IMG/VR virus record: IMGVR_UViG_3300033144_001879
Location: 1-55,165 of that record
Length of the DNA stretch: 55,165 nucleotides
Origin: a virus
Lineage: Duplodnaviria > Caudoviricetes
Strand: one strand, 5' to 3'
The notes under the pieces were generated by a model that was not told the DNA's origin, ran no database searches, and worked only from the letters and a program-made list of their open reading frames with translations. A program made the translations under genes and the position numbers. The stretch's first letter is position 1, and every line of letters begins with the position of its first letter. This document shows, piece by piece, positions 18,255 to 38,879 of this stretch.

Positions 18255-19241
18255 ATGGCCGCTACAAAAATTTCAGACATCATCGTTCCCGATGTCTTCG
18301 ATCCATATGTAACCGAGAAAACGGCCGAACTGACCGAATTATTTCTCGGTGGCATCATCAACCACGATCCGCAGTTCGACGAGCTTGCGAGTTCGGGCGG
18401 CACTATTTTGCAAATGCCGTTCTTCACTGATTTGACCGGAGCCGACGAAGTTCTCGCCGACGATGGTTCATTGACGGCGGGCGCAATCGGGACCGGTAAA
18501 GATCAAGCGCGGATGCACTTACGCGGCCGAGCTTGGGGCGTTAACGATTTGGCGAAAGCTTTGTCGGGCGAAGATCCAATGCGAGCAATCGCGGATCTCG
18601 TTTCTACTTATTGGGCGCGACGTTTTCAAGACGTCCTGATCGCTTCCTTGAAGGGTTGCTTTCTTGACGACGCCGGAGACGACGACGACATGAGTGTCGA
18701 CATTTCTCAGGCCGAAGGCTCGACTGCTGACGCAACCAATTGGATTGGTCCGGCCGGCGTAATTGCCGCCGCCGGTACACTCGGCGACGCCGCCGGTAAA
18801 CTCACCGCGATTGCAATGCATAGCGTCTGCTATCAGCGCTTGCAATTGCTCGAAGTGATTATCTACGAGCGTCCAGCCGGAACCAACATCAAGATTCCGT
18901 ATTACCTCGGTTATCGCGTGTTGGTCGATGACAATATGCCCGTTGTTGCTGGTGGAACCGATGGCTTCGTTTACACGTCGTATCTGTTTGGCGAAGGTGC
19001 GTTCGGATTCGGTCAAGGCTCCGCGCCAGTACCGAGTGAGACCGATCGCGATTCGTTGGCCGGTGAAGACTATCTCATTACGCGCAATCACTACATCATG
19101 CACCCTCGCGGTTATGCATGGGTAGAGACGACCGTAACGGGCGAGTCTCCGACGAATGTCGAGGCCGCTCTCGCCGTGAACTGGAATCGCGTCTATACGC
19201 GAAAGAACGTTCGTTTTGCTCAACTGAAGACGAACGGCTAG
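18255..19241 (+). CDS. Major capsid protein
   Basis: TKISDIIVPDVFDPYV, MPFFTDL, RGRAWGVNDLA, MHS, YLGYRVLVDD, MHPRG. Confidence 0.92.
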   Translation: MAATKISDIIVPDVFDPYVTEKTAELTELFLGGIINHDPQFDELASSGGTILQMPFFTDLTGADEVLADDGSLTAGAIGTGKDQARMHLRGRAWGVNDLAKALSGEDPMRAIADLVSTYWARRFQDVLIASLKGCFLDDAGDDDDMSVDISQAEGSTADATNWIGPAGVIAAAGTLGDAAGKLTAIAMHSVCYQRLQLLEVIIYERPAGTNIKIPYYLGYRVLVDDNMPVVAGGTDGFVYTSYLFGEGAFGFGQGSAPVPSETDRDSLAGEDYLITRNHYIMHPRGYAWVETTVTGESPTNVEAALAVNWNRVYTRKNVRFAQLKTNG

Positions 19242-20655: not shown

Positions 20656-21267
20656 ATGGCGATCGAATTCTTCTTCGTACCAATCGACCCGGTTGCACCC
20701 GGTGGATTCGGTAATACCCGATTCAAAGTTAAATATTGGGATGACGACGCGGTCTCTTCTCAGGGATCGCAACGCTATTCGTGGGACACGTCCGCGCTTT
20801 TGATGTTGGACGCGACGCAAGTCTATCTCGATTTCGTTGCGGCTCAATCGGACACGTTGCGCTTTTGCGCTCTCGAAGATTTGTCGGAAAGAGTGGGCGG
20901 ACCGGCAAGCAACGAGATTAAAAACTGGCTCGATCCGTTGGGCGTTCCCGTAAATTGGGTTAACGCTAATACGTCTTATCGGGAAGTGTTGCGCGGCATC
21001 TTTGGGATGTTCAAATTTACTCAAGTCCACGAGCAACTGAACGAGAAAGGTTTCTTCACCGACTTAACGTCGCCGGAGAATGGCTTTAGTCTCAACACGC
21101 AATGGCAGAACTTGAGTCAAGAATTCAGGGACACCATGCAACTGACGATCGATCACTATGGGTGGCCCGATGTGCCGGCTCCGAATGATCAGGTGCGCAA
21201 GATCCTCAAAGATTTTTCCGACAAGTTCGAGGGCACTGTCATGTCCGTGTGCGGTGTTTGGATCTAG
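20656..21267 (+). CDS. Hypothetical protein
   Basis: GGAG RBS; 203 aa. Confidence 0.75.
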   Translation: MAIEFFFVPIDPVAPGGFGNTRFKVKYWDDDAVSSQGSQRYSWDTSALLMLDATQVYLDFVAAQSDTLRFCALEDLSERVGGPASNEIKNWLDPLGVPVNWVNANTSYREVLRGIFGMFKFTQVHEQLNEKGFFTDLTSPENGFSLNTQWQNLSQEFRDTMQLTIDHYGWPDVPAPNDQVRKILKDFSDKFEGTVMSVCGVWI

Positions 21268-21271
21268 TTAA

Positions 21272-22840
21272 ATGAGTTACGGCGACAAACGTCAATTAGA
21301 AATTTCGGATAACTTCGATACCGAAATCGATTCGGGTGTCTGGTCGATTGGTCCGGGCGATTGGGGCGCTTACATTTGGGTGTCCGGCGGGTACATCAAT
21401 TGCTTCGACGAAGATGAAAGTTGCGCGATTGTCTTTACTGATTTCACTCCGAGCGATGATCAGTGGGCGAAGACGACCGTCAATAGCCAAGATTCGAGCG
21501 GTTCCTACATAAGCGCGGATACGCGGCATCAATCGAGCGAAGCGGTTTACACGGCGACCGCATCGTCAGAAGACGGCGATTACCAACTTTACGAATTCAC
21601 GAGTGGAATCGGCGGCGGCATCATTGCGTCGACGAGCGCGGGCGGAGAAATCCCGTTCGGTTCTGGCGACTTCATTCTTCTTGAAAGCGAAGGCGACTTG
21701 CATCGCGTCGGAAGTAACGCGGGCGGATCGGACGAAGAAAAATTCAATCACACCGACACTACGCTTTCGAGTGGCGAGATCGGTATAAGTGGATACGAGA
21801 GCGATAGCGCGTCGTCGTCTGATATTACGGCGTTCGAAGGCGGATCACTTGCGGAAGACTCGGGCGAAACCGCGAGCGGATCTCCGACACTCGGCGGCTT
21901 GACGTCTTCGGGTTCCGCCGAGATTAAAGTTATAGAACAAGCGAGCGGATCTCCGACGCTTTCCGGGTTAACGTCGAGCGGTGCTTCAGTCGTGAAGAAG
22001 ATCGCAAGCGCCGCCGTTGTCATTGCCGCGTTGACGAGCGTCGGGTCTTCGGTCGTCGAGAAGATCGCGAGCGGATCCCCAACACTCGACGCGCTCACTT
22101 CCGCCGGCGTCTCTGAAATCATTCGGTCGGCAAGTGGAACGCCGACACTCGATTCGATTACGTCGTCCGGCGTCGCCGAGATCTCGAAGCGCGCGAACGC
22201 GATTGCGATACTCGATCCGATTACGTCCGCCGGCGTATCAACGACCGGAAGAAAGGCGAGCGGATCTCCGACACTGGACTCGATAACCTCGGCCGGAGCC
22301 GGCAAACTCGGATGGAAGGCTTCGGGCTCTCCGACTCTCGGCGCGTTAACATCGGCCGGCGATGCGGAGATTAAAAAGGTTGCAAGCTCAAGCGCCACAA
22401 TTGACGCATTAACGGCGGCGGGTGTTGCGAACGTCAAGAAGTCCGCGAGCGGATCTCCGACAATTGACGCATTAACTTCGGCCGGCGATGCGGAGCCGCG
22501 AAAAATATCGAGCGGCGCTCCGACGCTTTCTTCGATTACTTCCGCCGGCGTTTCGGCGATACTGAAAGAAGCGGCCGGATCTCCGTTGATCGATGCTCTC
22601 GTTTCGAGTGGTGTCGGCGAAGTCAAAAAGATTGCGAGCGGATCTCCGACGTTGGCCTCGGTGACGTCCGCCGGCGAAGCCGAAGTGAAGAAGTTCTCAA
22701 GCGGCGGCGTTACACTTCAACCGATAACGTCCGCCGGTTTTGCGCAAGCGACGAGCGTCACGATTACGTCGGTCGGCATCGATGAGAATTGGCAAGACGG
22801 CGAAAGCGGAATCGAGATCGTCGGAACCGGGTTCGTCTAA
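21272..22840 (+). CDS. Fibre-like protein A: acidic beta-rich N-domain plus 14 x 21-aa repeats
   Basis: ASGSPTLxx(L/I)TSxG repeats counted in the translation. Confidence 0.85.
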   Translation: MSYGDKRQLEISDNFDTEIDSGVWSIGPGDWGAYIWVSGGYINCFDEDESCAIVFTDFTPSDDQWAKTTVNSQDSSGSYISADTRHQSSEAVYTATASSEDGDYQLYEFTSGIGGGIIASTSAGGEIPFGSGDFILLESEGDLHRVGSNAGGSDEEKFNHTDTTLSSGEIGISGYESDSASSSDITAFEGGSLAEDSGETASGSPTLGGLTSSGSAEIKVIEQASGSPTLSGLTSSGASVVKKIASAAVVIAALTSVGSSVVEKIASGSPTLDALTSAGVSEIIRSASGTPTLDSITSSGVAEISKRANAIAILDPITSAGVSTTGRKASGSPTLDSITSAGAGKLGWKASGSPTLGALTSAGDAEIKKVASSSATIDALTAAGVANVKKSASGSPTIDALTSAGDAEPRKISSGAPTLSSITSAGVSAILKEAAGSPLIDALVSSGVGEVKKIASGSPTLASVTSAGEAEVKKFSSGGVTLQPITSAGFAQATSVTITSVGIDENWQDGESGIEIVGTGFV

Positions 22841-22856
22841 TTGGAGTGTTCGAAAA

Positions 22857-23204
22857 ATGAGTGACTTTGACAATAGAAATTTTCCCGACGCGGTCGACTC
22901 CGACGACGTTGGTTGGATGATCGTTGAATGGCGAATCGAGCGCGACCGGAAGCGGTGCGAAGATTGCGGCGGCGATTACTCGCTTTACTCGTCGCAGTTC
23001 GAAGACTTGCCGAAGGGAACGACGGCGGAACAGGCTCGAAGAATGCTTCGGCGATACGTGAAGAATCGCCGGGAACATATTTCGACGAGTTGCGACGGAC
23101 CGATTAGAACTTCTCTTTTCTTGTTGCGCGTCGATCGTGTCGCAAACATAACAGACGACGAGAACAATTTATTTGATGACGTCGAGGTCGTGAATCATGT
23201 CTGA
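22857..23204 (+). CDS. Hypothetical protein (CxxC)
   Basis: GGAG RBS; CEDCGG. Confidence 0.6.
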   Translation: MSDFDNRNFPDAVDSDDVGWMIVEWRIERDRKRCEDCGGDYSLYSSQFEDLPKGTTAEQARRMLRRYVKNRREHISTSCDGPIRTSLFLLRVDRVANITDDENNLFDDVEVVNHV

Positions 23205-24006
23205 TTGGCTTTCAAATGGTGGATGCGTAAACGGGATCCGCTTCGCGGCGGACGGAGCCGGCGCGGGCGCGCGCGATTGGGTCGGAGACGTAGACGAAGC
23301 CGCTCAGTTCACAGACGCCGAGACGATCATCGTTGCGATTCCGTTTGATTCCGACGACATGAACGCAATCGACGGCGACTTTTCTCTCGACTGGAAGAAC
23401 GTTAGCGACGCGGGATCTTTTGCGGCGCTCTCGGGTTCCGGTGAATTGGTACTCGGAACGGTGTCGGATCTCGTAAACGGGAACGCCGTCGTCGAGGCCG
23501 AAGCGAACGGTTCGGAGAACTGCTCGGGAATGGGTGTCACTCGAATGGATGGTGTCGAGCGCGAGAATGCGAATTCCGTCTCAATGTCGGCGGTCGCGTC
23601 GAAGCGAGTTTTTGATCTTCATTGGGCGGTTGATTTGTCCGGCGCGGACGGAGCGAACGGCGACGAGTATCAATTTCGCGTGTCTGAAAACGGCTCGAAT
23701 TCTTACAAGGAATTCTCGGCATATATTACGGTCGTGACCGCCGGCAAGATCGACGGGATCACGAAAAACAAAGATCGAAGCGCGGCGGTCGGCGGCGTTA
23801 CCGTTTCGGCGTATCGATCCGATGAAGCCGGCTCCGATCCGAAGCCGATCGGCTCGCTTGTTTCGCAAGTTGTATCACACGCTTCGACCGGCGTTTATTC
23901 TTTAACCGGTTTAATCTCCGGCGCGAAATATTTTCTTCATGCCTACAAAGACGATACGGCGGACGTGTCCGACGGAACTGGCGAAGTGACCGCCGTCGAC
24001 GTGTAA
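23197..24006 (+). CDS. Virion protein with C-terminal carboxypeptidase-regulatory / prealbumin-like domain
   Basis: GKIDGITK...GVTVSAYR...STGVYSLTGL..GAKYFLHA. Confidence 0.75.
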   Translation: MSDWLSNGGCVNGIRFAADGAGAGARDWVGDVDEAAQFTDAETIIVAIPFDSDDMNAIDGDFSLDWKNVSDAGSFAALSGSGELVLGTVSDLVNGNAVVEAEANGSENCSGMGVTRMDGVERENANSVSMSAVASKRVFDLHWAVDLSGADGANGDEYQFRVSENGSNSYKEFSAYITVVTAGKIDGITKNKDRSAAVGGVTVSAYRSDEAGSDPKPIGSLVSQVVSHASTGVYSLTGLISGAKYFLHAYKDDTADVSDGTGEVTAVDV

Positions 24007-24009
24007 ATT

Positions 24010-26490
24010 ATGGCGGACCCGATTCAAAACTTTGCGTTGAGAACCGAAGCCGAGAAAGGCTCCGGGGATCCGCAAGACTTATCGCTTCGGAACGAAGCCG
24101 AGAAAGAAGAGTCGGGCGGCGGTGCGGATGAAACGGCGAGCGGTTCGCCTACGCTTGGCGGATTGACTTCGAGCGGAACCGCCGAGATCGAAAAACAAGC
24201 AAGCGGATCTCCGACGCTCGGCGGACTCACTTCGGGCGGAGCGTCGAAAGTTGTTCGGGCGGCGATCGGTGCGGCGACTTTGGCGGCGATTGTGGTCGCC
24301 GGCGTGTCCGTCGTCAGTCGCCCTGCAAGCGGTTCTCCGGCACTTTCTCCGATTACGTCTCAAGGTATAGGCGTAATTCGAAAGGTCGCGAGCGGTACAC
24401 CGACGCTTGCTCCGCTCACGTCCGCCGGCTCCGGTGAGATTATCAAGTCCGCGTCGGGATCTCCGACGATTTTGGCGATCACTTCGACGGGTGCGGTCGA
24501 GATCATCAAGCCGGCTTCGGGATCCCCGACGTTGGATCCGATCACGTCGACCGGCGCTTCGGTCTTGGGTGTTGAGAAGACGGCGAGTGGATCTCCGACG
24601 CTTGAATCTCTGACGTCTTCGGCTTCGTCATTCATTTGGCCGCGCGTCTATTTGAACACGACTCCGACGCTCTCCGGTGCGGTCGAAATGCTCGTGACGG
24701 ATGCGAGCGCGGACGGAACATCAATCGAGTTCACGGATCCGATCGGAGCGCCACTCGGGGCCGCTTGGCTCGGCGTCGAAAACCAAAATAATCACGACAT
24801 CGGATGGATTGCCGTTGTCGTCGGCGACGACAAGACCGCGAGCGGAGCGGCGACACTTCAAGCAATCGTTTCGGCGGGTGCGTCGAAGATCGTCAAGCCG
24901 GCGAGCGGTGCTTCGGTATTGCCGGCGCTTATCTCGACCGGCGTCACCGAGGTTGAGAAACGGGCGAGCGGGTCGAGTGTACTTCAAGCGATCACGTCGA
25001 CCGGTAACGGTGAAGTCGAGAAGCAAGCGAACGGAGCGTCGACGCTTCAAGCGATTGTTTCTTCCGGTGTCTGTGAAATCGAAAAACAGGCAAGCGGCGC
25101 GGCGATACTTTCCGCCATTATTTCGAGCGGCGATTGTGAGGTCGTCAAGGTTGCGTCCGGCGCTTCAGTACTTCAGGAAATCACGAGCGCGGGCGATAGT
25201 GCGACGGGAAGAGAAGCGAGCGGCGCGTCGGTGCTTCAGTCGATTACGTCGAGCGGCGTTTCGAATATTGAAAAGCCGGCGAGCGGATCTCCGAGTTTAT
25301 CTCCGATCACGTCTTCGTCCGTTGCTTCGATCAAAAAGATTGCGAGTGGATCCCCGGTACTCGATGCGATCGTCTCGGCCGGTCTCTCTGAAATCATCGC
25401 AGTTGCGAATGCGACCGCGACACTCCAACCGATCACGAGTTCGGGTGTTGCTGAAGTAATCGGAGTCGCAACCGCCGGCGGCGGCGCGATACTTCAACCG
25501 ATCACGAGCGCGGGCGACTCTGAAATCATCAAGCCGGCGAGCGGCGATGCGACGCTTTCCGCGATTATCTCCGACGGTTCGGCCGATCTTGCCGGTAAAC
25601 TTACGGCGAGCGGCGGACCGGTTCTCGATCCGATCACGTCGGCGGGTGTTGCCGGCAAGGAATCTTCGGCGGCCGGCGCTTCGACATTGCAACCGATCAC
25701 GTCGGCGGGTGTTGCTGAAGACATTCGGAAGGCGAGCGGCGCTTCGGTTCTCGACGCGATCACTTCGAGCGGTGTTTCGTCTCGACAAGAGATCGCGAGC
25801 GGAGCGTCTTCACTTCAAGCGATAACTTCCGCCGGTGTTGCGGAGCGAACACTCGTCACGAGTGGATCCCCGAGCTTGTCGCCGATTACATCGGGCGGCA
25901 ATGCAACGGCGAAGAAGAAAGCAAGCGGAGCGCCTTCGCTCGATCCAATTACGTCCGCCGGTACTGCGACGACCGAAGAGCCGCCGAAGCAAGCGAGCGG
26001 AGCGCCGACACTTCAGGCTCTCACGTCCGCCGGTGTTGCGGAGCGCAAAGCAATCGCGAACGGCGCGGGGATTCTTTGGGAACTTTATTCGGCCGGAGAC
26101 GCGAACGACATTCAAGTCGCTTCGAGCGCGGCTTCGCTTCAACCGATAACGTCGAGCGGATCTTCGAGGATCGTCAAAGACGCCGACGCGTTTGCGACAT
26201 TGGATCCAATAACCTCGGCCGGTGTTGCCGGACTGAAGTTGACATCGAGCGCCGCGATTACGTTGCCCGCTCTTATTTCGAGCGGCGTCGTTGTCAATCT
26301 CGACGCGCCGAGAACGCCGTCGGTCGAGGTTACTGCGAACGTCGACGGAACCGAGATCGAGGTTCTCACCGAAGAGAACGTCGAAGTCGGCGCGCTTGTT
26401 TCGGATCTTCTCGATATACTGACCGAGTCAAGTGTCGAAGTTGATGCGCGAGTTTCGCCGCTTAATCTTAACGGCTACATGGACACATAA
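24010..26490 (+). CDS. Fibre-like protein B: about 31 x 21-aa repeats interrupted by a partial Ig-like insert
   Basis: 8 repeats, insert, then 23 repeats; paralogous to 21272..22840. Confidence 0.85.
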   Translation: MADPIQNFALRTEAEKGSGDPQDLSLRNEAEKEESGGGADETASGSPTLGGLTSSGTAEIEKQASGSPTLGGLTSGGASKVVRAAIGAATLAAIVVAGVSVVSRPASGSPALSPITSQGIGVIRKVASGTPTLAPLTSAGSGEIIKSASGSPTILAITSTGAVEIIKPASGSPTLDPITSTGASVLGVEKTASGSPTLESLTSSASSFIWPRVYLNTTPTLSGAVEMLVTDASADGTSIEFTDPIGAPLGAAWLGVENQNNHDIGWIAVVVGDDKTASGAATLQAIVSAGASKIVKPASGASVLPALISTGVTEVEKRASGSSVLQAITSTGNGEVEKQANGASTLQAIVSSGVCEIEKQASGAAILSAIISSGDCEVVKVASGASVLQEITSAGDSATGREASGASVLQSITSSGVSNIEKPASGSPSLSPITSSSVASIKKIASGSPVLDAIVSAGLSEIIAVANATATLQPITSSGVAEVIGVATAGGGAILQPITSAGDSEIIKPASGDATLSAIISDGSADLAGKLTASGGPVLDPITSAGVAGKESSAAGASTLQPITSAGVAEDIRKASGASVLDAITSSGVSSRQEIASGASSLQAITSAGVAERTLVTSGSPSLSPITSGGNATAKKKASGAPSLDPITSAGTATTEEPPKQASGAPTLQALTSAGVAERKAIANGAGILWELYSAGDANDIQVASSAASLQPITSSGSSRIVKDADAFATLDPITSAGVAGLKLTSSAAITLPALISSGVVVNLDAPRTPSVEVTANVDGTEIEVLTEENVEVGALVSDLLDILTESSVEVDARVSPLNLNGYMDT

Positions 26491-26494
26491 GAAC

Positions 26495-26836
26495 ATGACA
26501 ACCGAAATCAAATATTATCGAAATGATACCGCCGTGATTCGCGTCACCATTCGAAGTCGTTCGACTTTGGAACCGATCGACATTACTGCGAAAGAATTAC
26601 TCTTGACTGTCGATCCCTCGGAGAACCCCGAAGACGACTCGTCGAATCTCGTTCAACTTACCGGCGCGATCGAAGATGCGGCGGGCGGAGTTGCGACGTT
26701 TACGCCGGACTCTGACGACATGGACTTCGATCCCGGTTCGTATTGGTACGACGTACAAATTCAAGACTCCGGCGGAACGAATCGTCGAACCGTTGTGAAA
26801 GGTGTCTTCACGCATCAACAAGACATCACGAAATAG
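26495..26836 (+). CDS. BppU-N-like Ig-fold virion protein
   Basis: RNDT...PIDIT...DAAGGVATF...GSYWYDVQI...TVVKG...DIT. Confidence 0.75.
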   Translation: MTTEIKYYRNDTAVIRVTIRSRSTLEPIDITAKELLLTVDPSENPEDDSSNLVQLTGAIEDAAGGVATFTPDSDDMDFDPGSYWYDVQIQDSGGTNRRTVVKGVFTHQQDITK

Positions 26837-26845
26837 GAAAAGATA

Positions 26846-27352
26846 ATGTCGATTACAATTCCGCCGAGCGTTTCCGCCGACTCATATGTCGCGCTTGCCG
26901 TTGCCGACGCTTACCACGCGACGCGGCTCAATGTAGATTTGTGGGACAGTGCGAACGAAGAAACGAAAGAGTCCGCGCTCAAGATGGCGACGCGTCGACT
27001 CGAAGCCGAAAATTGGAAAGGGTTGAAAACGCATTCGCTTGCGTCGAATATTCTTCGTTGGCCGCGTTCCGATTTGTACAACGACGACGGTCAAATCGAA
27101 AGCTCGACGACGGTTCCGATTGCGGTTCAACACGCGACCGCCGAGCTTGCTCTCGAAATGCTCAAGGCGGCGGCGGACGAATTGGCCGGCGCACAATCGA
27201 AGACTTCGGAGATTCAAGTCGGACCGGTGAAGCTCAAACTCGACACGGACCAAACGAACGCGACGTCGGTCGAGGAACTCTCCGGCGACGTCGAGAACTT
27301 GATCGCCCGATATAGAAATTCCACGGCGATGACGTCTCTCGTTCGAGCGTGA
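26846..27352 (+). CDS. Head-tail adaptor (DnaT_2-like family)
   Basis: ADSYV..A.ADAYH, LRWPR, VPIAVQHATAELAL. Confidence 0.8.
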   Translation: MSITIPPSVSADSYVALAVADAYHATRLNVDLWDSANEETKESALKMATRRLEAENWKGLKTHSLASNILRWPRSDLYNDDGQIESSTTVPIAVQHATAELALEMLKAAADELAGAQSKTSEIQVGPVKLKLDTDQTNATSVEELSGDVENLIARYRNSTAMTSLVRA

Positions 27353-28563: not shown

Positions 28564-29469
28564 ATGACATTAGCGACAGGCGCACAAGCCGAACTCGGTT
28601 ACATCGAAGAAGTTGTGTATGGAACGACGCCGGCGACGCCGTCACTCGTTCAACTACCAATTTCCAGTTTCACGCCGGAACTTACGAAAGAAGGTTTTCA
28701 ATCGGGCGACTTGCGCTCCGATCGACAAATCGCTGATTATCGACACGGCGCACGACAAGCCGCGATCGGAATGGAATTCGAATTGAAGCACACCGAATTC
28801 GACGAGTTTCTCGAAGCGGCTCTCTGGGGTACTTGGGCGACCGACACTCTGAAGGCTTCGACCGATCGGAAGTTCTTCTCGATGGAAGCGGCGTATCGAG
28901 ACATCGCACAATTCCATCTGTACAAGGGAATGCTTGCAAACTCGTTCGGGTTATCTCTCGGCGTCGATGGCGTCGTCAAGTGTAATTTGGCGTTACTCGG
29001 TCAAGACATGGTGACGGCTCAAACGTCCGCCGATTCTGGTCCGTACGAAGTACCGAGCGCGGCTCGTTCGTTTGATTCCTTTACGGGAACAATCGACGAA
29101 GGCGGCGGCTCAATCGCCATCGTGACCGGGCTCGACTTTCAACTCGAAAACGGTTTGACGCCGGCGAAGGTTGTCGGCTCGGCAACGGTCGCGGATTTCT
29201 TCGACGGTCGATCGAATCTCACCGGAACCGTGAACGCGTTCTTCGAAGACGAATCGCTTCTCGATAAGTTCCTTGACGAGACTCCGAGCGACATCGAATT
29301 CGTTTTGACGGATCCCGATTCGGAGACGTTGACGTTTACGATCCCGCGCATAATCTACACTGGCGGCTCGGCTCCGGTTTCTGGCGAAGCCGGTATCGTG
29401 ATCGCTCTTCCGTTCCAAGCGACTTATGATTCGTCGGAAGATACGAATATTAAAATCGTCCGGTCGTAA
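28564..29469 (+). CDS. Major tail (tube) protein
   Basis: YIEEV.YGTTP, SGDLRSDRQ; synteny; no sheath gene present. Confidence 0.88.
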   Translation: MTLATGAQAELGYIEEVVYGTTPATPSLVQLPISSFTPELTKEGFQSGDLRSDRQIADYRHGARQAAIGMEFELKHTEFDEFLEAALWGTWATDTLKASTDRKFFSMEAAYRDIAQFHLYKGMLANSFGLSLGVDGVVKCNLALLGQDMVTAQTSADSGPYEVPSAARSFDSFTGTIDEGGGSIAIVTGLDFQLENGLTPAKVVGSATVADFFDGRSNLTGTVNAFFEDESLLDKFLDETPSDIEFVLTDPDSETLTFTIPRIIYTGGSAPVSGEAGIVIALPFQATYDSSEDTNIKIVRS

Positions 29470-30260: not shown

Positions 30261-32912
30261 ATGTCTACAGATCTTGCAACGCTCTCGCTTCGAATCGAGT
30301 CGCTCGAAACGGTTGTCGCCGGCAAGCGTCTTGATACATTGTCGGCGAAAGGAACGAAAGCCGCCGCGTCAATGGGTGTGATGTCGAAAGCTGCGAAGGC
30401 TCTCGGCGGAGTGTTGGCCGGTCTCTTTGCGTTCCGTGCGCTCGGTGGAATGTTTGCGAACATTTCGAAAACCGCGAGCAAGTTCGAGGCGTCGATCTCC
30501 GAGCTTGCGGCGATCACCGGAGCGGCCGGAAAGAATCTCGAATATTTAACGGCGAAGTCAAAAGAGTTCGGTCGAACGACAACGCTCTCGGCTTCACAAG
30601 CGGCCGAGGGTTTCAAACTTGTTGCAAGTGCGAAACCGGATCTTCTCGAAAACGCCGAGGCTCTCGCGAAAGTAACCGAGAACGCGATCGCTCTCGCGGA
30701 AGCGACGGGCTCGACGTTACCGGAAGCGGCCGAAACTCTCGGCTCCGCTTTGAATCAATTCGGCGCGGGCGCGGAAGAAGCGGATCGCTTTATAAACGTT
30801 CTCGCCGCCGGCGCACAACGCGGCGCGTCAATGGTTCGCGATACCGCCGAAGCTTTACGCTTTGCCGGCACGGTTGCCGCGAGCGTCGGCGCATCGTTTG
30901 AAGTTACGAATGCGGCGATTCAACAACTCTCGACGGTCGGCATCAAGGGAAGTGAAGCGGGTACGGCGCTTCGTAATATTTTCCTGAAGCTCGAAGGTCA
31001 AATGTCACAGCAATTCAAACCGTCTGTGGTTGGCTTTACTCAAGCGTTGAGAAATTTGCGTGATGCCGAAGAGGGTCAAATCGACACGTTGAAACTTTTC
31101 GGTCTTCGCTCCGTTGTCGCCGCGAACAACTTAATCGCTCAAGCCGATAACGTCGAGATCCTCGAAAAGAAGATCACGAAGACGTCGACGGCGTTCGAGC
31201 AACAAGCGACGAAGGTCGACAATCTCGAAGGGTCCATGAAGCAACTCGCAAGCGCAACCGAGGGATTAACGATTCGGCTCGGTGAGGGAATGGAACCGGC
31301 ACAACGAGCGAGCGTCGATTCTTTGACGAAGGCGGCGAACGCGTTTACGACTTACCTCGGCCGCGTCGAAGAGAGCGATCGCGCGACGTCGAAGTGGGGT
31401 TTCGTTGTGCAAGCAACCGTGAAGATCTTGTTTGCATGGTATATCGAATTTTTGGACTTGATCGATTTGATTAAGAAGTTCGGCGAGCATATTTCGATCA
31501 CCGGGCAAATGATCATGGTCTCGTTTCGCGACATGGGAGACGCGGCTTCGTCGTTCGGTCGATCAATCGTCGCGCTCGCGCAACTCGACTTCGACATGGT
31601 CGATCGAATCGCCGCCGCTCGGGAGACCGCGAAGCTTCAGGCCGAAGAAGAACTCAAGCTTTTGAGCGAACGACGCGTCGTCGTTAACTTGTCGCGCATT
31701 GCACAACGCGCCGAGGCCGAAGCTCAAATCGAGTTGTTCAATTCTCGTGTTGAATTCGGAGCGGTGCAAACGGATCTCGAAAACAATTCAATCGAACGTG
31801 CGCAAGTAAGTCTCGAATTGACAAAGGAACAAATCGCCGCCGAAGCCGCGAGAGCGCAAGCCGCCGAAGATGCGTTGACCGCCGACTCGCAAGCGGGAAT
31901 CGAAGACGTCGCGGACAAGTACGCGACCGACATCGAAGCGGCCGAGCAAAACGCGGCCGAGCAAAAAGCGATCCTTGCGGGGATTACCGCGTTTACGGTT
32001 GAGCAAGAAGAACTCAAGGCCGAGACGATTCGTCGTATCGATCAGGAACTCACCGATCTTAAATCCGAGGCGTTCGAGAAGATCGCGGATCAAGCTGCGA
32101 AAGAAACCGAAGTGGAGTTGAAGGCGATTCAAGATCGGCAAGACGTCATAACCGAATTTAAGATCATGGCGGCCGAGACCGAAACCGAGCGCGAGCAAAT
32201 TCGTTTCGAGGAACGTCTCGAACTCATCGAGGAACAAGCCGAAGAAGAAGCGATCGCGAAATCGTTGCTTGATGCGGCGATCGAGCAAGCGAGCGCCGAA
32301 CACGAAAAGAAATTGACGGACATCAAAGCGCGCGAACTGAAAGCTCGCAAGCGTCTCGAAGACATCGCGGCGAAGGGTAGCGTCGCAAATCAATTCGGAT
32401 ACATGGCGCAACTCACGAGCGGAGTCGCGCAACACTCGAAGAAGATGTTCAAAATAAACAAGATCGCGGCTATGGCTCAAGCGGCTATGAATATTCCGAG
32501 AGCGGCGTCGGATGCGTTTGCGGCGGCCGGAAACCCGATCGTCGGTGCGATATTTGCGGCGCTTGCGATCGCGGCGGAAGTTGCACAATTGAACGCGATT
32601 CGTTCGACGACATTCGAGGGCGGCGGCGGCGGAACCACACCGAGCGCCGCCGGCTCAATGCCGACTATAAACGGAACCCCGGTGAGTTCTCGCGGGCAGA
32701 ATGAAACAACCGGCGACTTTTTGAATCCGCCGTCGGCGGACGACGACGAGATCGGCGGCCGAACGCAAATCGTTGTGACCGGGAACGTTGGCTTCACTCC
32801 CGATATAATCGACGAGATCGCGGACGGTATTCGCGAAGCAACCGGCGACCGCGATGTCGTTCTCTTTGATGAAAACAGTCGACAAGCGCAAGACGTCGTG
32901 AGGGCGACTTAG
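30261..32912 (+). CDS. Tail tape measure protein (TP901-like core)
   Basis: TTLSASQAAEG, GIKGSEAGTALR, DNLEG; long helical protein. Confidence 0.92.
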   Translation: MSTDLATLSLRIESLETVVAGKRLDTLSAKGTKAAASMGVMSKAAKALGGVLAGLFAFRALGGMFANISKTASKFEASISELAAITGAAGKNLEYLTAKSKEFGRTTTLSASQAAEGFKLVASAKPDLLENAEALAKVTENAIALAEATGSTLPEAAETLGSALNQFGAGAEEADRFINVLAAGAQRGASMVRDTAEALRFAGTVAASVGASFEVTNAAIQQLSTVGIKGSEAGTALRNIFLKLEGQMSQQFKPSVVGFTQALRNLRDAEEGQIDTLKLFGLRSVVAANNLIAQADNVEILEKKITKTSTAFEQQATKVDNLEGSMKQLASATEGLTIRLGEGMEPAQRASVDSLTKAANAFTTYLGRVEESDRATSKWGFVVQATVKILFAWYIEFLDLIDLIKKFGEHISITGQMIMVSFRDMGDAASSFGRSIVALAQLDFDMVDRIAAARETAKLQAEEELKLLSERRVVVNLSRIAQRAEAEAQIELFNSRVEFGAVQTDLENNSIERAQVSLELTKEQIAAEAARAQAAEDALTADSQAGIEDVADKYATDIEAAEQNAAEQKAILAGITAFTVEQEELKAETIRRIDQELTDLKSEAFEKIADQAAKETEVELKAIQDRQDVITEFKIMAAETETEREQIRFEERLELIEEQAEEEAIAKSLLDAAIEQASAEHEKKLTDIKARELKARKRLEDIAAKGSVANQFGYMAQLTSGVAQHSKKMFKINKIAAMAQAAMNIPRAASDAFAAAGNPIVGAIFAALAIAAEVAQLNAIRSTTFEGGGGGTTPSAAGSMPTINGTPVSSRGQNETTGDFLNPPSADDDEIGGRTQIVVTGNVGFTPDIIDEIADGIREATGDRDVVLFDENSRQAQDVVRAT

Positions 32913-33311: not shown

Positions 33312-36300
33312 ATGCGTTCGAACTCTGACAACTTTAACGAGTATAATTTCGCGGTCGCGAAAGAACTTCGGCTAGTTGTTCGGATCAATTTTCCGACGCC
33401 GATTTATCTCACGTCTCACTCGGGGATCTCCGGCATTCCGGCTAATCGAATCGATGGATGCCTGAAGAATGTTTCGAGTACGTCGCAACGGTTAAGCCCG
33501 GATCAAGGTCGCTCGACGATCGGTTCGATTTCATTCGACGCGCTAGATCTCGACGGAGAGATCACGACAGAATTCAGGGCGCAACAAGCCGCCGGCGAAG
33601 GTTTGGCCGGACGTCGGGTCATCCTGTATCGAGGCGGCGAAGGCATGGCATGGTCCGACTTCCGCGCCGAACAAACTCAGCAAATCGACGGAAGCGTCGC
33701 GTTTAATAAAGGCGTCTACAAAGTTCAGTGTGCCGACATTCAGCGCGCTATGCGGAAAGACATTTTCGACGTTGCGAAAACCGCGCTCGCCGCCGACTTT
33801 AATCAAGGCGCTTCGACGCTAAACGTTTTCGATACTTCCGAGTTCGAGGCTTGTACGCATAAGGCAAGCTTCGGTGATCAGCAATCCGGCTCGTATTATT
33901 ACGCGAAGATTAAATACGACAACGGCTTCGAAATTATCCGGGCAACTGGCAAGACGGCGGACTCATTTACGGGAGTAACTCGCGGCGTCTTCGGAACTAG
34001 TGACGTCGACCACGTTTTCCCGACTGGCGAAGACGACGATTCGAGCATCGAAATCGAGGAATATGTTTATCTCGAATTGCCCGCGCCGGCGTTAGCGTAT
34101 GCGCTTTTAACTGGCGACATTATTGGCGGCGGAACATTGCCGTCGAACTGGCATCTTGGCATCGATTCGGCGGACGTTGATCAACCTTCATTCGAGGATC
34201 TCGCCGAAGACTGGTTCGATTCGAGCGACTATTCGACCGGCCTGATTTTCCGCTTTCAGGGTGTCGGCAAAGAAGACGGAAAGCGTTTCATCGAGCGAGA
34301 AGTTTGCTTGCTTGCCGGCGCGTTCTTGCGAGTCGGAGCCGACGGCAATATCTACATAAAACAAATGACGGGAGTCATCGAGTCCGCCGATTACATTATC
34401 GAGCTTACGGAAAAAGAAATCGTGAAGTATGGCTCGGTTCGTCACTCACTCAATAAGCTTCGAAATATTTACGATGTCGAATGGGCGTTCGTCGATTTAC
34501 CGGGCGAAGATAAGCCGCGATTTGTTCGTCGGAATATTCTCGCCGACGCGACGTCGATCGCTATACACGGCGAGTCGAAACCGCTTGCTCTTAAATTCAA
34601 GGGATTGCACAACGAGCGCCACACCTATACGACGTTGATCAATCGGTTCGACGCGTTGCGCGATCGTTACGCGGGTCCGCCTATCGAAATGAACGTCGAT
34701 CTTTTACCGTCGACAAATGACATCGAGGTCGGCGATATTTGCCGGGTCGTTTTGGATGACGTGCGAGACTATGCCGGGACCGGTTCGCTTCGGCGCGCGT
34801 TTGAAGTTCAGCGAATTCGAGTCAATCAAAGAACCAACAAAGTGACCGCGACGTTATTCGGCTCGACGTTGAAGGCCGATCCAATTGTCGACATCGGAGC
34901 CGGCGTCAATTCGGAATTGCCGGATGGTTGGTATAGCTCGGCCGGAACCGACATGGACGGAGAACTGACGATCAACGGTTCCGGTGTCATGACGTCGAAT
35001 GGCTCGCTTACCGGCGGTACGACAACGCGAACGATTTATTATTATCTCGGCGACTTCACAATTCAAAACGGCGTGACGTTAACGACATCCGGTAACGTCG
35101 AGCTTCGCATTCGCGGACACTGTCAAATAAACGGAACGCTCAAATCCGAAGGCGGAATGCCGGCGGATACGAACGGGTTCCTCGGCGTCGGGCTCGGCGG
35201 AAACTTTGTCATGATTCGCGGGAGCGGCGAAGTTGTGTATTGGCGCGGACCGGCGACGGCGGATCATGGTCGCGAAGCGATGCCGATTTCCGAAATCGAA
35301 AATTTGGCCGGCGTCTTGACTGGTATTCGCTCGGATATGCGCGGGTGCGGTGGTGCGACCGGCGGCAAGGTCATGGAGTGGAACGGAAGTTCTTTCGTCG
35401 AAAAGGCGGCCGGCGGAAACGCCGGCGTCGGCGGTGGTTCGCCCGTTATCATTTCACGCGGCGCGGGTTACGGAGCCGGCGGCTCGACCGTTACGTCGGG
35501 AACCGACGGAAGTGTCGGCGCGAATTACGGCAACGAAGAAGCGGGCTCGGGCGGCGGCGGCGCACCCGGCGGCTTGCTCCATGTTCTCGACGGCTCGAAC
35601 GTCTCATTTCCAATTCTCGCCGGGAAGGTTGTCGCGGCATATGGAACGAGCCCGATCAAAAATAACAATCCGCTCACGCAAGGAAAGGCAAAAGCGGGAG
35701 ACCCGATAGATCTCGGTACGGCGGCGGCTCGTGTTGCGTATGTGCCGAAGAGTCGCGAGCCTTATCCCGATTACGTGAACGATGATCTCGGTCCGCAAGA
35801 CGGAGTCGACGGACAAGACGGCAACGACGGCAACGACGGCAACGACGGCGACCACGGCGATTCTGTCGACGTAATTTTTCAGCGATCGGCGACTCAACCG
35901 ACGACGCCGGATCCATCGGCCGGGGTTCCGGCGGGATGGTATGCGGATGTTGCAAGCGTTCCGGCGGCCGCGAATCCGTTGTGGTCTTCGTTCGGTACGA
36001 TACCGGGCGGCGGTTCGACTTATACATGGTTGACGCCGGTTCTTCTTGAGGCGTCGAATTCTCTTTACGTGCGCGGAACCGGTTACAACAACGCGTCGAA
36101 TCGAATCGTAAAGCTCGGCGGAGTAGATTTGAAAAATAGCGGCGGCATCGGGCTTTGTCTCACCGTTGTTCGCCGCGTTGACTTGGTCGAATTGTCATAT
36201 CACCGAGACGGTGGCGTCGGCGCGGACGCGAAGTCGCAAGTCTATAACACGTACTCAAGCGAAGACGATCGTCTCAAGCTACGCGATGCGCTTGTCGAAA

Positions 36301-38879
36301 TGCGTACGAACGGAAACGCAACGCAATCGGCCGGCGACTTCGGCGAAGATGTTTTCGTAATTATCACGAGTTACGACTCATCCGTTTTGAACAACACGAA
36401 CGGCGAGCTTCTCAAAACAGAAGCGAAGCTTCACGGCGCAAGCTCGTCGATTGATCGGTTCGACAACATCGAGTACCGGATCCCGTATTTACTGATCGGA
36501 ATTCCGGGCATCGGGGACGGAAGGGGAATCGAGGTTATGACCGACGACGGTGCGACGACGCCGCCGGCGGAATATTTCGGCACGATTCAAGATGGCGCGC
36601 TCGCCGGCCTCGGTATGCGCGGCAACGACGGTGATCCCGGCAACGACGGCAACGACGGGAACGACGGGAACGACGGAGACGACGGCACAGCCGCGCCGGT
36701 GAATTGGGCGAAAGACTATGCGTCGTTCGAGTCGAGTCCGAACAAGTCCGTCGACAGTGGAAGCGTGACATCGTCATACGATACCGGCGAAAAGTGGTCG
36801 GGATCTCAGTCGCTCAAGCTCGTTGCAAACGCATCCGACGGATACACATATTTCGGCATCAATGGGAACGATTACAATATCGAAATCCCGGCAAATCAAA
36901 GTTGGATTTTGTCGGGATACGTTCGATTGACGAATGCGAATTCGCCGAAGGTGTCGGACAATGTTCAACTTTACGTGCGCGCTTCTAGTACGACTCATTA
37001 TGGCGGCGGAACTCCCGGCAGTATCGCGGCCGATGATGCTTGGCATCGAATCGAAACCGTTTGCGATCTCTCGGCCGATGCGTCGACGTCGTTAGTTATA
37101 AGAGTTGACAACGACTCGTTTAACTCCGCCGGCGACACGACGATGCACTTCGACGGCTTGCAACTTGAACTCGACGACGGTTCCGGCGTTGCTCGTGTTT
37201 ACACGCCGCCGGCGGATGCGATCAGTTCGATTGTGGTTTCGATTTACCAGCGGGCGCGAATTGCTCCGTCGACTCCGACCGGTGGAAGTTATAACTTCGC
37301 GACGGGAATTCTTACCGTTCCGGGCGGCGGTTGGGCCGAAGAAATTCCCGCCGCGATCGGTCATCCACTTTACGTTTCGACTGCGCAGTTTGAATCGTCT
37401 GGTTCGTTCGGTATCGACTCGGTCGTGACATGGTCGTCGCCGGTGCAAATGGTAAACGACGGCGTCACCGGATTGATTCTTTCGTCGCGCGATTGGGTGA
37501 ATCCGATTACGGAATTCATGGGTGCATGGTCAAGAACGGCGAACGCCGGAACGGTTTCAATTGCTTCCGATGACGCCGGTCCGTTCGACGAATATCCGCA
37601 AGCAATTCAAATTACGGGCGCGGACAATAACCCCGGATGGTTCGGCCGCTTCGAGGGAAATTTCGGATACGACGCGAATCGATCTTATATTATTTATCAG
37701 TGGGTCAAGCGGTTGAACAGTGTCACCGCCGGACTTTATGTCGGATTTGAAACCGCCGGCGCGGGTTCGGAAATTGTTCAATCAACTGGCGGAACTCCGT
37801 CGGAAAATCCATATGTATTCGCGAACGCCGGGGCGAATCTTACAACCGACAAATGGTATTTGATGGTTTCAATTTGTTGGGCCGATGGCTTCGGCGGCGG
37901 CGGACAAGGCTTGTCGGGTATCTACGATCCCGACGACGGTTCGAAAGTTATCGGTGGGACCGAATGGCAATGGAACGGACAAGAAAAGGAATTGACTTAT
38001 TACCGTTTCGGATATTACGACAATGCGGCTCCGACGATTCCAGATACCGACGGCTACAAATTTACGCGCGTTTCCGGTTGGCTTCGCAACGGTGACGAGC
38101 CGTCGATCGAAGCGGTTCTCGGAGCCGGCGCAATTACGGGTGCGGACGGATCGGACGGACAAGACGGTGGCGACGGCGATAGCACTTTCGTCGCTCAAGT
38201 GTTCCTCAGAAAAGCGACGGCTCCGTCGACGCCGGACGTGGACGACGGCGAGTATAACTTCTCGACGTCGACATTAACGCCGCCGACGATCTCCGGCGGA
38301 TCCGACGAAGATTGGTTCGTGACGCCGCCGACGACCGACGGCAATCCGCTCTATGTTTCGGTTGGATCCTTTTTCGTTAACGGCACGACCGGAACCGATA
38401 GCACGGTGACGTGGACCGCGCCGGCGATTCTTGTCGAAGACGGTATCGACGGAGCCGACGCCGGGTTCCCGGTTGTACTCACTCAACTTAGTGTTAGTTT
38501 TTCGCAAGAAGAAGTTGCCACGTATGCCGGCATTCGATTTAATACCGACGGCTCAATCGATGCGCGCGGTTGGGCGGGTGGAACGTATATTCAACAGAAC
38601 GTCGGCGAGTGGTTTACCGGCGAGCCGGAAGCGGATTACGGCGACGACTTCGAGGTTCGTTGCGAGGAAATACTTTCAGGAGCGTGGGTGACGTCGGCAG
38701 CACCCGAGGGAACTTGGGTTCCGCTTACGTCCAATCGTTTGTGGAGCGTCGGCGCGTTGGCAATGGCCGCACCATATTATCAATATACGCCGGCGAACTT
38801 TGAGATCCGGCGAATCGGAACAACCGGCCCGGTCGCGTCGGCGACGATGTCTTGCGAGGCGGAGATTACGGAACCATGA
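33312..38879 (+). CDS. Tail tip/hub fused to a multidomain central fibre (Gly-rich, collagen-like, ILEI-like and CBM-like domains)
   Basis: 1855 aa; IEVGD in hub C-terminus; GxD triplets; YNTY...IITSYD...YRIPYLLIG; HFDGLQLE. Confidence 0.85.
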   Translation: MRSNSDNFNEYNFAVAKELRLVVRINFPTPIYLTSHSGISGIPANRIDGCLKNVSSTSQRLSPDQGRSTIGSISFDALDLDGEITTEFRAQQAAGEGLAGRRVILYRGGEGMAWSDFRAEQTQQIDGSVAFNKGVYKVQCADIQRAMRKDIFDVAKTALAADFNQGASTLNVFDTSEFEACTHKASFGDQQSGSYYYAKIKYDNGFEIIRATGKTADSFTGVTRGVFGTSDVDHVFPTGEDDDSSIEIEEYVYLELPAPALAYALLTGDIIGGGTLPSNWHLGIDSADVDQPSFEDLAEDWFDSSDYSTGLIFRFQGVGKEDGKRFIEREVCLLAGAFLRVGADGNIYIKQMTGVIESADYIIELTEKEIVKYGSVRHSLNKLRNIYDVEWAFVDLPGEDKPRFVRRNILADATSIAIHGESKPLALKFKGLHNERHTYTTLINRFDALRDRYAGPPIEMNVDLLPSTNDIEVGDICRVVLDDVRDYAGTGSLRRAFEVQRIRVNQRTNKVTATLFGSTLKADPIVDIGAGVNSELPDGWYSSAGTDMDGELTINGSGVMTSNGSLTGGTTTRTIYYYLGDFTIQNGVTLTTSGNVELRIRGHCQINGTLKSEGGMPADTNGFLGVGLGGNFVMIRGSGEVVYWRGPATADHGREAMPISEIENLAGVLTGIRSDMRGCGGATGGKVMEWNGSSFVEKAAGGNAGVGGGSPVIISRGAGYGAGGSTVTSGTDGSVGANYGNEEAGSGGGGAPGGLLHVLDGSNVSFPILAGKVVAAYGTSPIKNNNPLTQGKAKAGDPIDLGTAAARVAYVPKSREPYPDYVNDDLGPQDGVDGQDGNDGNDGNDGDHGDSVDVIFQRSATQPTTPDPSAGVPAGWYADVASVPAAANPLWSSFGTIPGGGSTYTWLTPVLLEASNSLYVRGTGYNNASNRIVKLGGVDLKNSGGIGLCLTVVRRVDLVELSYHRDGGVGADAKSQVYNTYSSEDDRLKLRDALVEMRTNGNATQSAGDFGEDVFVIITSYDSSVLNNTNGELLKTEAKLHGASSSIDRFDNIEYRIPYLLIGIPGIGDGRGIEVMTDDGATTPPAEYFGTIQDGALAGLGMRGNDGDPGNDGNDGNDGNDGDDGTAAPVNWAKDYASFESSPNKSVDSGSVTSSYDTGEKWSGSQSLKLVANASDGYTYFGINGNDYNIEIPANQSWILSGYVRLTNANSPKVSDNVQLYVRASSTTHYGGGTPGSIAADDAWHRIETVCDLSADASTSLVIRVDNDSFNSAGDTTMHFDGLQLELDDGSGVARVYTPPADAISSIVVSIYQRARIAPSTPTGGSYNFATGILTVPGGGWAEEIPAAIGHPLYVSTAQFESSGSFGIDSVVTWSSPVQMVNDGVTGLILSSRDWVNPITEFMGAWSRTANAGTVSIASDDAGPFDEYPQAIQITGADNNPGWFGRFEGNFGYDANRSYIIYQWVKRLNSVTAGLYVGFETAGAGSEIVQSTGGTPSENPYVFANAGANLTTDKWYLMVSICWADGFGGGGQGLSGIYDPDDGSKVIGGTEWQWNGQEKELTYYRFGYYDNAAPTIPDTDGYKFTRVSGWLRNGDEPSIEAVLGAGAITGADGSDGQDGGDGDSTFVAQVFLRKATAPSTPDVDDGEYNFSTSTLTPPTISGGSDEDWFVTPPTTDGNPLYVSVGSFFVNGTTGTDSTVTWTAPAILVEDGIDGADAGFPVVLTQLSVSFSQEEVATYAGIRFNTDGSIDARGWAGGTYIQQNVGEWFTGEPEADYGDDFEVRCEEILSGAWVTSAAPEGTWVPLTSNRLWSVGALAMAAPYYQYTPANFEIRRIGTTGPVASATMSCEAEITEP

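Follow-up and report, generated by a model that had tools for sequence, protein, structure and literature searches.

The locus described here raises the question of whether two fibre proteins of a phage can share one immunoglobulin (Ig)-like domain, with each gene encoding only a part of it. The window, which is the whole stretch of DNA that was analyzed, comprises 55,165 bp; it is a complete virus record and carries direct terminal repeats (IMG/VR record IMGVR_UViG_3300033144_001879; Caudoviricetes). Two repeat-rich proteins are encoded on its plus strand: A (522 amino acids, aa; 21272..22840), which ends in a short tail, and B (826 aa; 24010..26490), whose repeat shaft is interrupted by an insert. 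A first-pass annotation, made from the letters alone, had noticed that the tail resembled the first two strands of an IPT/TIG domain and the insert the remaining ones, and it proposed that the two halves make one domain in trans, docking A as a side branch on B. Both features lie where it had placed them. It had also taken the two fibre genes to be adjacent, but they are separated by two conserved open reading frames (ORFs; 115 and 269 aa).

The answer that we favour, and regard as somewhat probable, is that A and B form a TIG-like plug-and-socket joint completed in trans. The tail of A (the plug) would be the first two strands (A–B) of an IPT/TIG-type Ig-like domain, and the insert of B (the socket) would be the remaining five. 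After translation, the tail hairpin would dock onto the insert and complete one beta-sandwich. A would thereby be fastened to B without a covalent bond, at about one quarter of the length of the repeat shaft. Across relatives, the socket protein is a conserved repeat fibre, whereas the plug is portable and occurs on many different bodies, including concanavalin/LamG-like ones. The joint would therefore let phages hang interchangeable modules on a fibre. The tail and insert modules are conserved, are nearly always encoded as neighbours and occur once each per whole record, and they are complementary in position on the TIG profile and fold. We infer the contact between them, the composite TIG-like sandwich, the virion-anchored partner and the oligomeric state.

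Protein A comprises an N-terminal body of ~200 aa, ~14 copies of a 21-aa repeat (ASGSPTLxxITSAGxxEIxKx) and the 28-aa tail, SVTITSVGIDENWQDGESGIEIVGTGFV (residues 495–522; 22754..22837, plus strand), which has two putative strands and ends in GIEIVGTGFV followed by TAA. The last 45 aa of A matched the C-terminal ends of five database proteins that the insert had also retrieved (P0017, P0043, P0049, P0052, and P0046), and a search with the end of P0043 gave ten further proteins (14 at E ≤ 0.1 among 88 candidates, the query included). A word-index search with the last 47 aa of A returned no relatives at E ≤ 1 among proteins of 287–914 aa. A hidden Markov model (HMM) was built from 13 tails of the window and the database proteins; it included the window's own tail and no sequence from the 31 loci described below. 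On the six-frame translations of these loci and the window, it matched only the C-terminal ends of ORFs. The window tail scored E 6.3e-10, with the match ending at the stop codon, and E 4.4e-18 with a profile of 23 tails. All 23 distinct tails, which were 27–28 aa long with the consensus ..ITDV.T.E.W.DGDTGLVITGTGF, ended 0–2 residues before the stop, and six positions were invariant and three nearly invariant. A frameshift or read-through joining A to the downstream sequence was rejected, since an in-frame TGA lies seven codons past the TAA of A and the gap is variable in relatives.

Protein B comprises a 40-aa head, ~31 repeats and a single non-repeat insert of 61 aa after the eighth repeat (residues 211–271; 24640..24822, plus strand). 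The repeat regions of both proteins matched phrog_38263, a family of unknown function (E 2.3e-6 for A and 6.4e-10 for B). When the 77-aa insert region was used as a phmmer query on 1.84 billion representatives, 66 proteins scored E ≤ 0.001; of these, 42 were at E ≤ 1e-10 and six at E ≤ 1e-30. The weak matches P0061, P0063, and P0064 resembled unrelated repeats and were excluded from the insert HMM. The module was present in one to three copies per protein and always started with P-[KR]-V-[WY]-L-N; what preceded it was either a 21-aa repeat or unrelated sequence. Among the 82 matched stretches printed (~75 true insert instances), none had extra N-terminal strands before the insert. On sequence grounds, neither the tail nor the insert is a chance feature. 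In all six frames of the window, the insert HMM found a single copy, in B (E 1.2e-33; next best E 1.1). A second insert copy or a hidden remainder of the domain of A in the window was rejected, as only B matched. By eye, the start of the 115-aa ORF resembled the last strand of the insert, and it gave no score with the insert HMM.

The insert alone was modelled by AlphaFold2 (AF2) from a 43-row alignment as five strands (residues 12–16, 25–32, 39–42, 50–58, and 63–71 of the 77-aa query), with a mean predicted local distance difference test score (pLDDT) of 85.2, core blocks at 90–95 and a predicted template modelling score of 0.71. No match at E ≤ 0.001 was found in BFVD, and the ESM Atlas gave no usable match. 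A profile of nine inserts had nothing significant among PDB sequences, where the best match was an archaeal-type pilin (E 0.062). The cultured-phage collection contained no tblastn match to B. The tail/insert family is absent from that collection and is thus currently invisible to annotation; Pfam likewise gave no family for A, B, the window tail, or the window insert.

A search with a compact alignment of inserts retrieved 10 viral and 21 metagenome loci; it retrieved none from prokaryote genomes. No loci were obtained when the query was the 77-aa insert by itself, P0001, P0002, or P0067. In six of these 31 insert-selected loci the insert ORF was truncated by the contig start, which left 25 testable loci. 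A tail-ending ORF was found upstream on the same strand in 24 of the 25, the exception being L015, and in 22 of 23 after removal of two duplicates (L011 of L010 and L020 of L012). The stop of the tail ORF ranged from 40 nt inside the next reading frame to ~1.1 kb upstream of it. The reverse search, with a tail alignment, gave nine viral loci, seven of them on contigs already found, and all nine had an insert ORF downstream; in the two new ones (L036 and L039), it was immediately downstream. Exactly one tail and one insert were found in each of five whole virus records, three of which were at least 95% complete. The window showed the same layout, with the tail at the C-terminus of A and, downstream on the same strand, the insert in B (E 1.5e-31). 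As a side observation, L015 also has a contiguous TIG-like domain.

The proteins that carry the tail are diverse. After removal of the tails, the 25 tail ORFs (window included) fell into 16 groups unrelated by BLASTP (E ≤ 1e-5). Their bodies included repeat fibres, LamG-like proteins, and very short ORFs, and Laminin_G_3 was present in three of nine bodies scanned. The insert proteins downstream had differing N-termini, and another repeat type was found in L010. The socket lay only 11–21 residues from the C-terminus in L008, L017, L030, and L032. In B, an internal socket would give a branch, whereas these near-terminal sockets would give a tip joint, so that the side branch of the first-pass annotation fits B and does not extend to these four relatives.

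The likeness to IPT/TIG domains was examined with the Pfam TIG profile (PF01833), which has a length of 84 positions and a curated cut-off of 20.9 bits. Seven of the 23 distinct tails matched it (best E 0.0052), and the single other family hit came from one member. The three matches with coordinates displayed covered profile positions 1–26 or 1–27. The tail ORF of L010 matched TIG at positions 1–26 with its residues 243–268 of 269 (E 0.034, 14.6 bits), and it also matched Laminin_G_3 (E 8.7e-16). The tail was also the only TIG match in the whole records G002 and G004, where it covered positions 1–27 and ran into the stop (E 2.6e-4, 16.8 bits, and E 3.4e-3, respectively); G001 and G003 had no TIG match. 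Judged from these profile matches, the TIG resemblance of the tail family is real, though under the Pfam threshold.

For the insert, the evidence came from the fold. In a VIA-align comparison of the model with 48,161 chains, five reached Z ≥ 5 and none reached Z ≥ 8. The best match with a root-mean-square deviation (rmsd) below 3 Å (rank 2 overall) was 8co1_Q2, which is DR_1364 of Deinococcus radiodurans (Z 5.4, rmsd 2.2 Å, 62 residues, 27% identity; model 8–72 against chain 90–155). DR_1364 is described as a predicted IPT/TIG protein modelled over residues 61–155, i.e., 95 residues (PMC10828601). The insert aligned to the last 66 of these modelled residues, so that nothing in the insert corresponds to the first ~29. 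Many IPT/TIG or E-set domains come next at Z 4–5 (Rel-family dimerisation domains, Met and plexin IPT, EBF3 IPT/TIG, and galactose oxidase domain 3), and such domains, RelA, NFAT, and p52 among them, recur in the top 50 VIA rows. Contiguous TIG-like domains were also found inside related insert-bearing fibres, in L015 (~2368–2640; TIG E 0.0015, positions 3–69 of 84) and in P0036 (residues 508–598). The tail and insert of the window are not one contiguous TIG segment of ~85 residues, as they are on separate genes with two ORFs between.

Contact between the two parts was addressed by complex prediction, a check that the first-pass annotation had suggested. The insert and the last 47 aa of A, each with an alignment, scored 0.56 (runs 0.48, 0.56, and 0.57), whereas the best of three controls scored 0.07. 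The runs agreed in at least 64% of contacts, and the pLDDT of the partner was at least 57. Of 80 solved complexes, 58 reached the mark applied, and so did two of 110 mismatched pairs; only seven of the 80 reached it at 0.60 or under, as did both mismatches that passed. The prediction separates the pair from the controls and weakly supports docking. Complete TIG folds are among the solved structures, so the pass may come from resemblance to an entire TIG domain and not from binding.

One sequence feature touches both parts. In the window and in L005, which is its counterpart locus, a V (22817–22819) stands in the I-V-G-T-G-F of the tail where other tails have T or A, and a V (24817–24819) stands in the V-V-V of the last insert strand where other inserts have T or E. 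These could possibly be a paired change; the window and L005 are close relatives, so they would represent one event at most.

Several results weigh against a joint between A and B. The synteny by itself is no proof of contact, since neighbouring genes in related phages share descent. All TIG scores of the tail family were below the 20.9-bit cut-off, and neither part qualifies as Pfam TIG: the window's own tail had no Pfam family at E ≤ 10, and none of nine inserts, that of the window included, matched TIG. Four of the nine had a weak match to VP17_central_barrel (best E 0.0019). Z values of 4–6 are in the range that VIA calls common, so the fold match of the insert is suggestive and not proof. 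Foldseek found no match of the insert in the PDB at E ≤ 0.001, with 8co1 again the best (E 0.15; query-normalized template modelling score, TMq, 0.62; rmsd 2.0 Å). When compared by hhalign with the pair of contiguous TIG-like domains of L015 and P0036, the insert aligned to columns 34–117, just after the 'GSNF' strand as expected, but at P 0.05; the tail profile aligned elsewhere than predicted (P 0.077), so that this weak comparison bore out half of the expectation. The earlier claim of TIG likeness is upheld for the tail family, through the sub-threshold matches of the tails to the profile start, and not for the tail and insert of the window at the sequence level. In full-length P0017, in which insert, one repeat, and tail are in one chain, AF2 gave the insert a pLDDT of 90–97, whereas the tail, for which the alignment was shallow, was at 49–65, strandless and undocked. 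Two to three inserts were present in some socket proteins with one tail gene nearby (L009, L016, L022, L026, and L033; partial contigs). Complete folding of the insert on its own had been named by the first-pass annotation as evidence against its proposal, and in silico the insert did so. The confident solo model suggests that the insert may be a self-sufficient five-strand domain.

That last point leads to the alternative that survives best, although we consider it rather unlikely. The insert would be an autonomous small beta domain in the shaft, serving as a spacer, a knob, or a glycan-binding unit, and the tail would be a separate docking or oligomerisation tag with another target, such as a downstream fibre part or the virion; the genes would be neighbours since they belong to one appendage. 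It accounts for the solo model of the insert, its lack of a TIG signal in sequence, the undocked tail of P0017, the fibres with several inserts near a single tail gene, and the four of 15 tail-bearing database proteins (P0073–P0076) that have no insert in the chain (best insert E > 1). It does not account for the placement of tail and insert on complementary, non-overlapping parts of the TIG profile and fold, or for the one tail and one insert per whole record. The complex score, weak as it is, is also separated from the controls. By eye, the insert was the only element common to all downstream proteins, which differed in their N-termini and, in L010, in repeat type; yet 30 of the 31 remained linked in a BLASTP comparison from which the insert had been masked.

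A second alternative is that the tail completes an insert of its own protein type or its own chain, as in P0017 and P0043, to form a permuted domain or head-to-tail chains. On this view, the two-gene arrangement of the window would be secondary, the parts having become separated, or A and B would each oligomerise with their own kind. In 11 of the 15 tail-bearing database proteins, insert, one 21-aa repeat, and tail do follow each other in a single chain, and a linker of ~25 aa could span an Ig domain. We nevertheless judge this improbable, as AF2 showed no docking of the tail within the chain, and the tail and insert are on different proteins in all 24 tail-bearing insert-selected loci, in L036 and L039, and in the window, where A lacks an insert and B lacks a tail. 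That the resemblance is chance or a leftover, the tail being the decayed stump of a complete TIG domain with no present role, would agree with the missing Pfam hit of the window tail and the sub-threshold TIG scores, but it is very improbable given the invariant and nearly invariant tail positions kept across 16 unrelated bodies, the constant position at the extreme C-terminus, and a tail HMM without any other match in the window or in the 31 loci selected by the insert.

The plug-and-socket joint of A and B is retained on these terms: the idea of two complementary TIG-like parts on cooperating proteins, as first proposed, gains strong comparative support from the synteny in both search directions, the five whole records, and the 16 bodies, whereas the support for physical strand complementation is weak. 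A broader version is tentative, and we hold it with somewhat less confidence. Diverse uncultured phages might use a split Ig-like domain as a universal connector, in which a C-terminal tag on any cargo completes a 61-aa socket, with one or several per fibre, as a TIG-type sandwich. The cargo, lectin-like adhesins for instance, would be swapped by simple replacement of the upstream gene, and the fibres would be branched or tipped, with a valency set by the number of sockets.

Literature searches returned no description of split or complemented Ig domains in phage fibres, in line with the first-pass annotation. The nearest known principle appears to be the donor-strand complementation of chaperone-usher pili, from which the proposed joint would differ in polarity, in the strands donated, and in biological context. 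In these pili, the subunit has an Ig-like fold lacking the C-terminal G strand, which is finished by the N-terminal extension of the next subunit (donor-strand complementation and exchange), with the aid of a dedicated periplasmic chaperone and an outer-membrane usher. In both cases an incomplete Ig-like fold would be finished by strands of another polypeptide, giving a strong non-covalent fibre joint. In the phage pair, however, the missing part would be two N-terminal strands (27–29 residues of TIG) rather than the last strand, and the donor would be a hairpin at the C-terminus instead of an extension at the N-terminus; the proposed contact is between two different phage proteins encoded side by side. 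Nothing suggesting a periplasmic chaperone or usher was seen in the annotated neighbourhood of the window, where no search was aimed at either.

Other known systems share single features with the proposed joint. Like IPT/TIG domains (PF01833; DR_1364/GspP, PDB 8co1), the tails match profile positions 1–27 and the insert can be superposed on the C-terminal 66 residues of DR_1364, but in the window the parts are on two genes 1.8 kb apart, and the insert has five strands, not seven. In branched receptor-binding complexes of phages (G7C and CBA120-type tailspikes), one fibre or spike is attached to another by N-terminal adaptor domains, each of which is a complete fold. As there, exchangeable adhesin-type proteins would be placed on a carrier fibre, with variable bodies and one conserved docking element; here this element would be a C-terminal half-domain of 27–28 aa. 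SpyTag/SpyCatcher is an engineered split Ig-like system in which a short peptide tag completes a truncated Ig-like domain, as the short tail would do. The tail/insert pair is natural, and the tail would donate two strands; no sign of an isopeptide bond was noted in the pair, in an analysis that ran no test for one.

If the joint exists as proposed, it would be a new mode of joining phage appendage proteins, namely the completion of a fold by a donated two-strand hairpin with the polarity reversed relative to pili. It would explain how one conserved fibre carries many unrelated bodies, 16 groups in the present set and some of them LamG-like. It would also provide a rule for finding host-recognition modules in metagenomic phages, namely to look for a gene with the tag at its end. 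Being a short natural tag and a small socket, the two parts could also serve as a protein-coupling tool.

The A/B module lies within the structural block of the window, between the capsid and connector genes. The major head protein is encoded at 18255–19241 (phrog_247, E 8e-105), followed by small ORFs and by a 203-aa ORF (20656..21267, plus strand) without a Pfam family, directly before A. Downstream of B are a 111-aa ORF (26501–26836), which had a weak match to Big_9 (bacterial Ig; E 0.0059) and a match to phrog_1084, the head-tail adaptor Ad1 (26846–27352), a tail protein (28564–29469), and a probable tape-measure gene (30261–32912). A very large ORF of 1855 aa (33312–38879) is found downstream of the latter. 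In L008 and L012, too, the module has the capsid and connector genes on either side. In L005, L010, and L036 it is just upstream of a gene that we take to be the terminase gene from its size and position.

The 115-aa ORF (22857..23204) and the 269-aa ORF (23197..24006), both on the plus strand between A and B, had no family in the Pfam and PHROG scans. Both have counterparts at the matching place between the A-like and B-like genes of L005 (651–995 and 988–1806, respectively). The 115-aa ORF has a C-x-D-C-G-G motif, and it sits between plug and socket genes only in the window and this closest relative. The 269-aa ORF and B are in one reading frame with only TAA ATT ATG between, and there is no obvious ribosome-binding site before the ATG of B. 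The arrangement in L005 is likewise tight, with a 272-aa ORF ending where the B-like ORF begins. The junction may reflect translational coupling or a former single gene. The head of B (24010–24135), which contains two short ..LR.EAEK.. units and may be the attachment end of the fibre, is kept in P0002 (residues 1–38, E 5.6e-10) and in the B-like protein of L005.

The 203-aa ORF and the N-terminal body of A travel together as a cassette (20656–21871 in the window, 7405–8588 in L004, and 3383–4680 in L036), with the homologues of the 203-aa ORF directly upstream of the A-type bodies in both loci. The N-terminal 200 aa of A are 51% identical to a protein in L004. In L004 the A-type body is followed by a different repeat and has no tail; in L036 the tail follows the body directly, without repeats.

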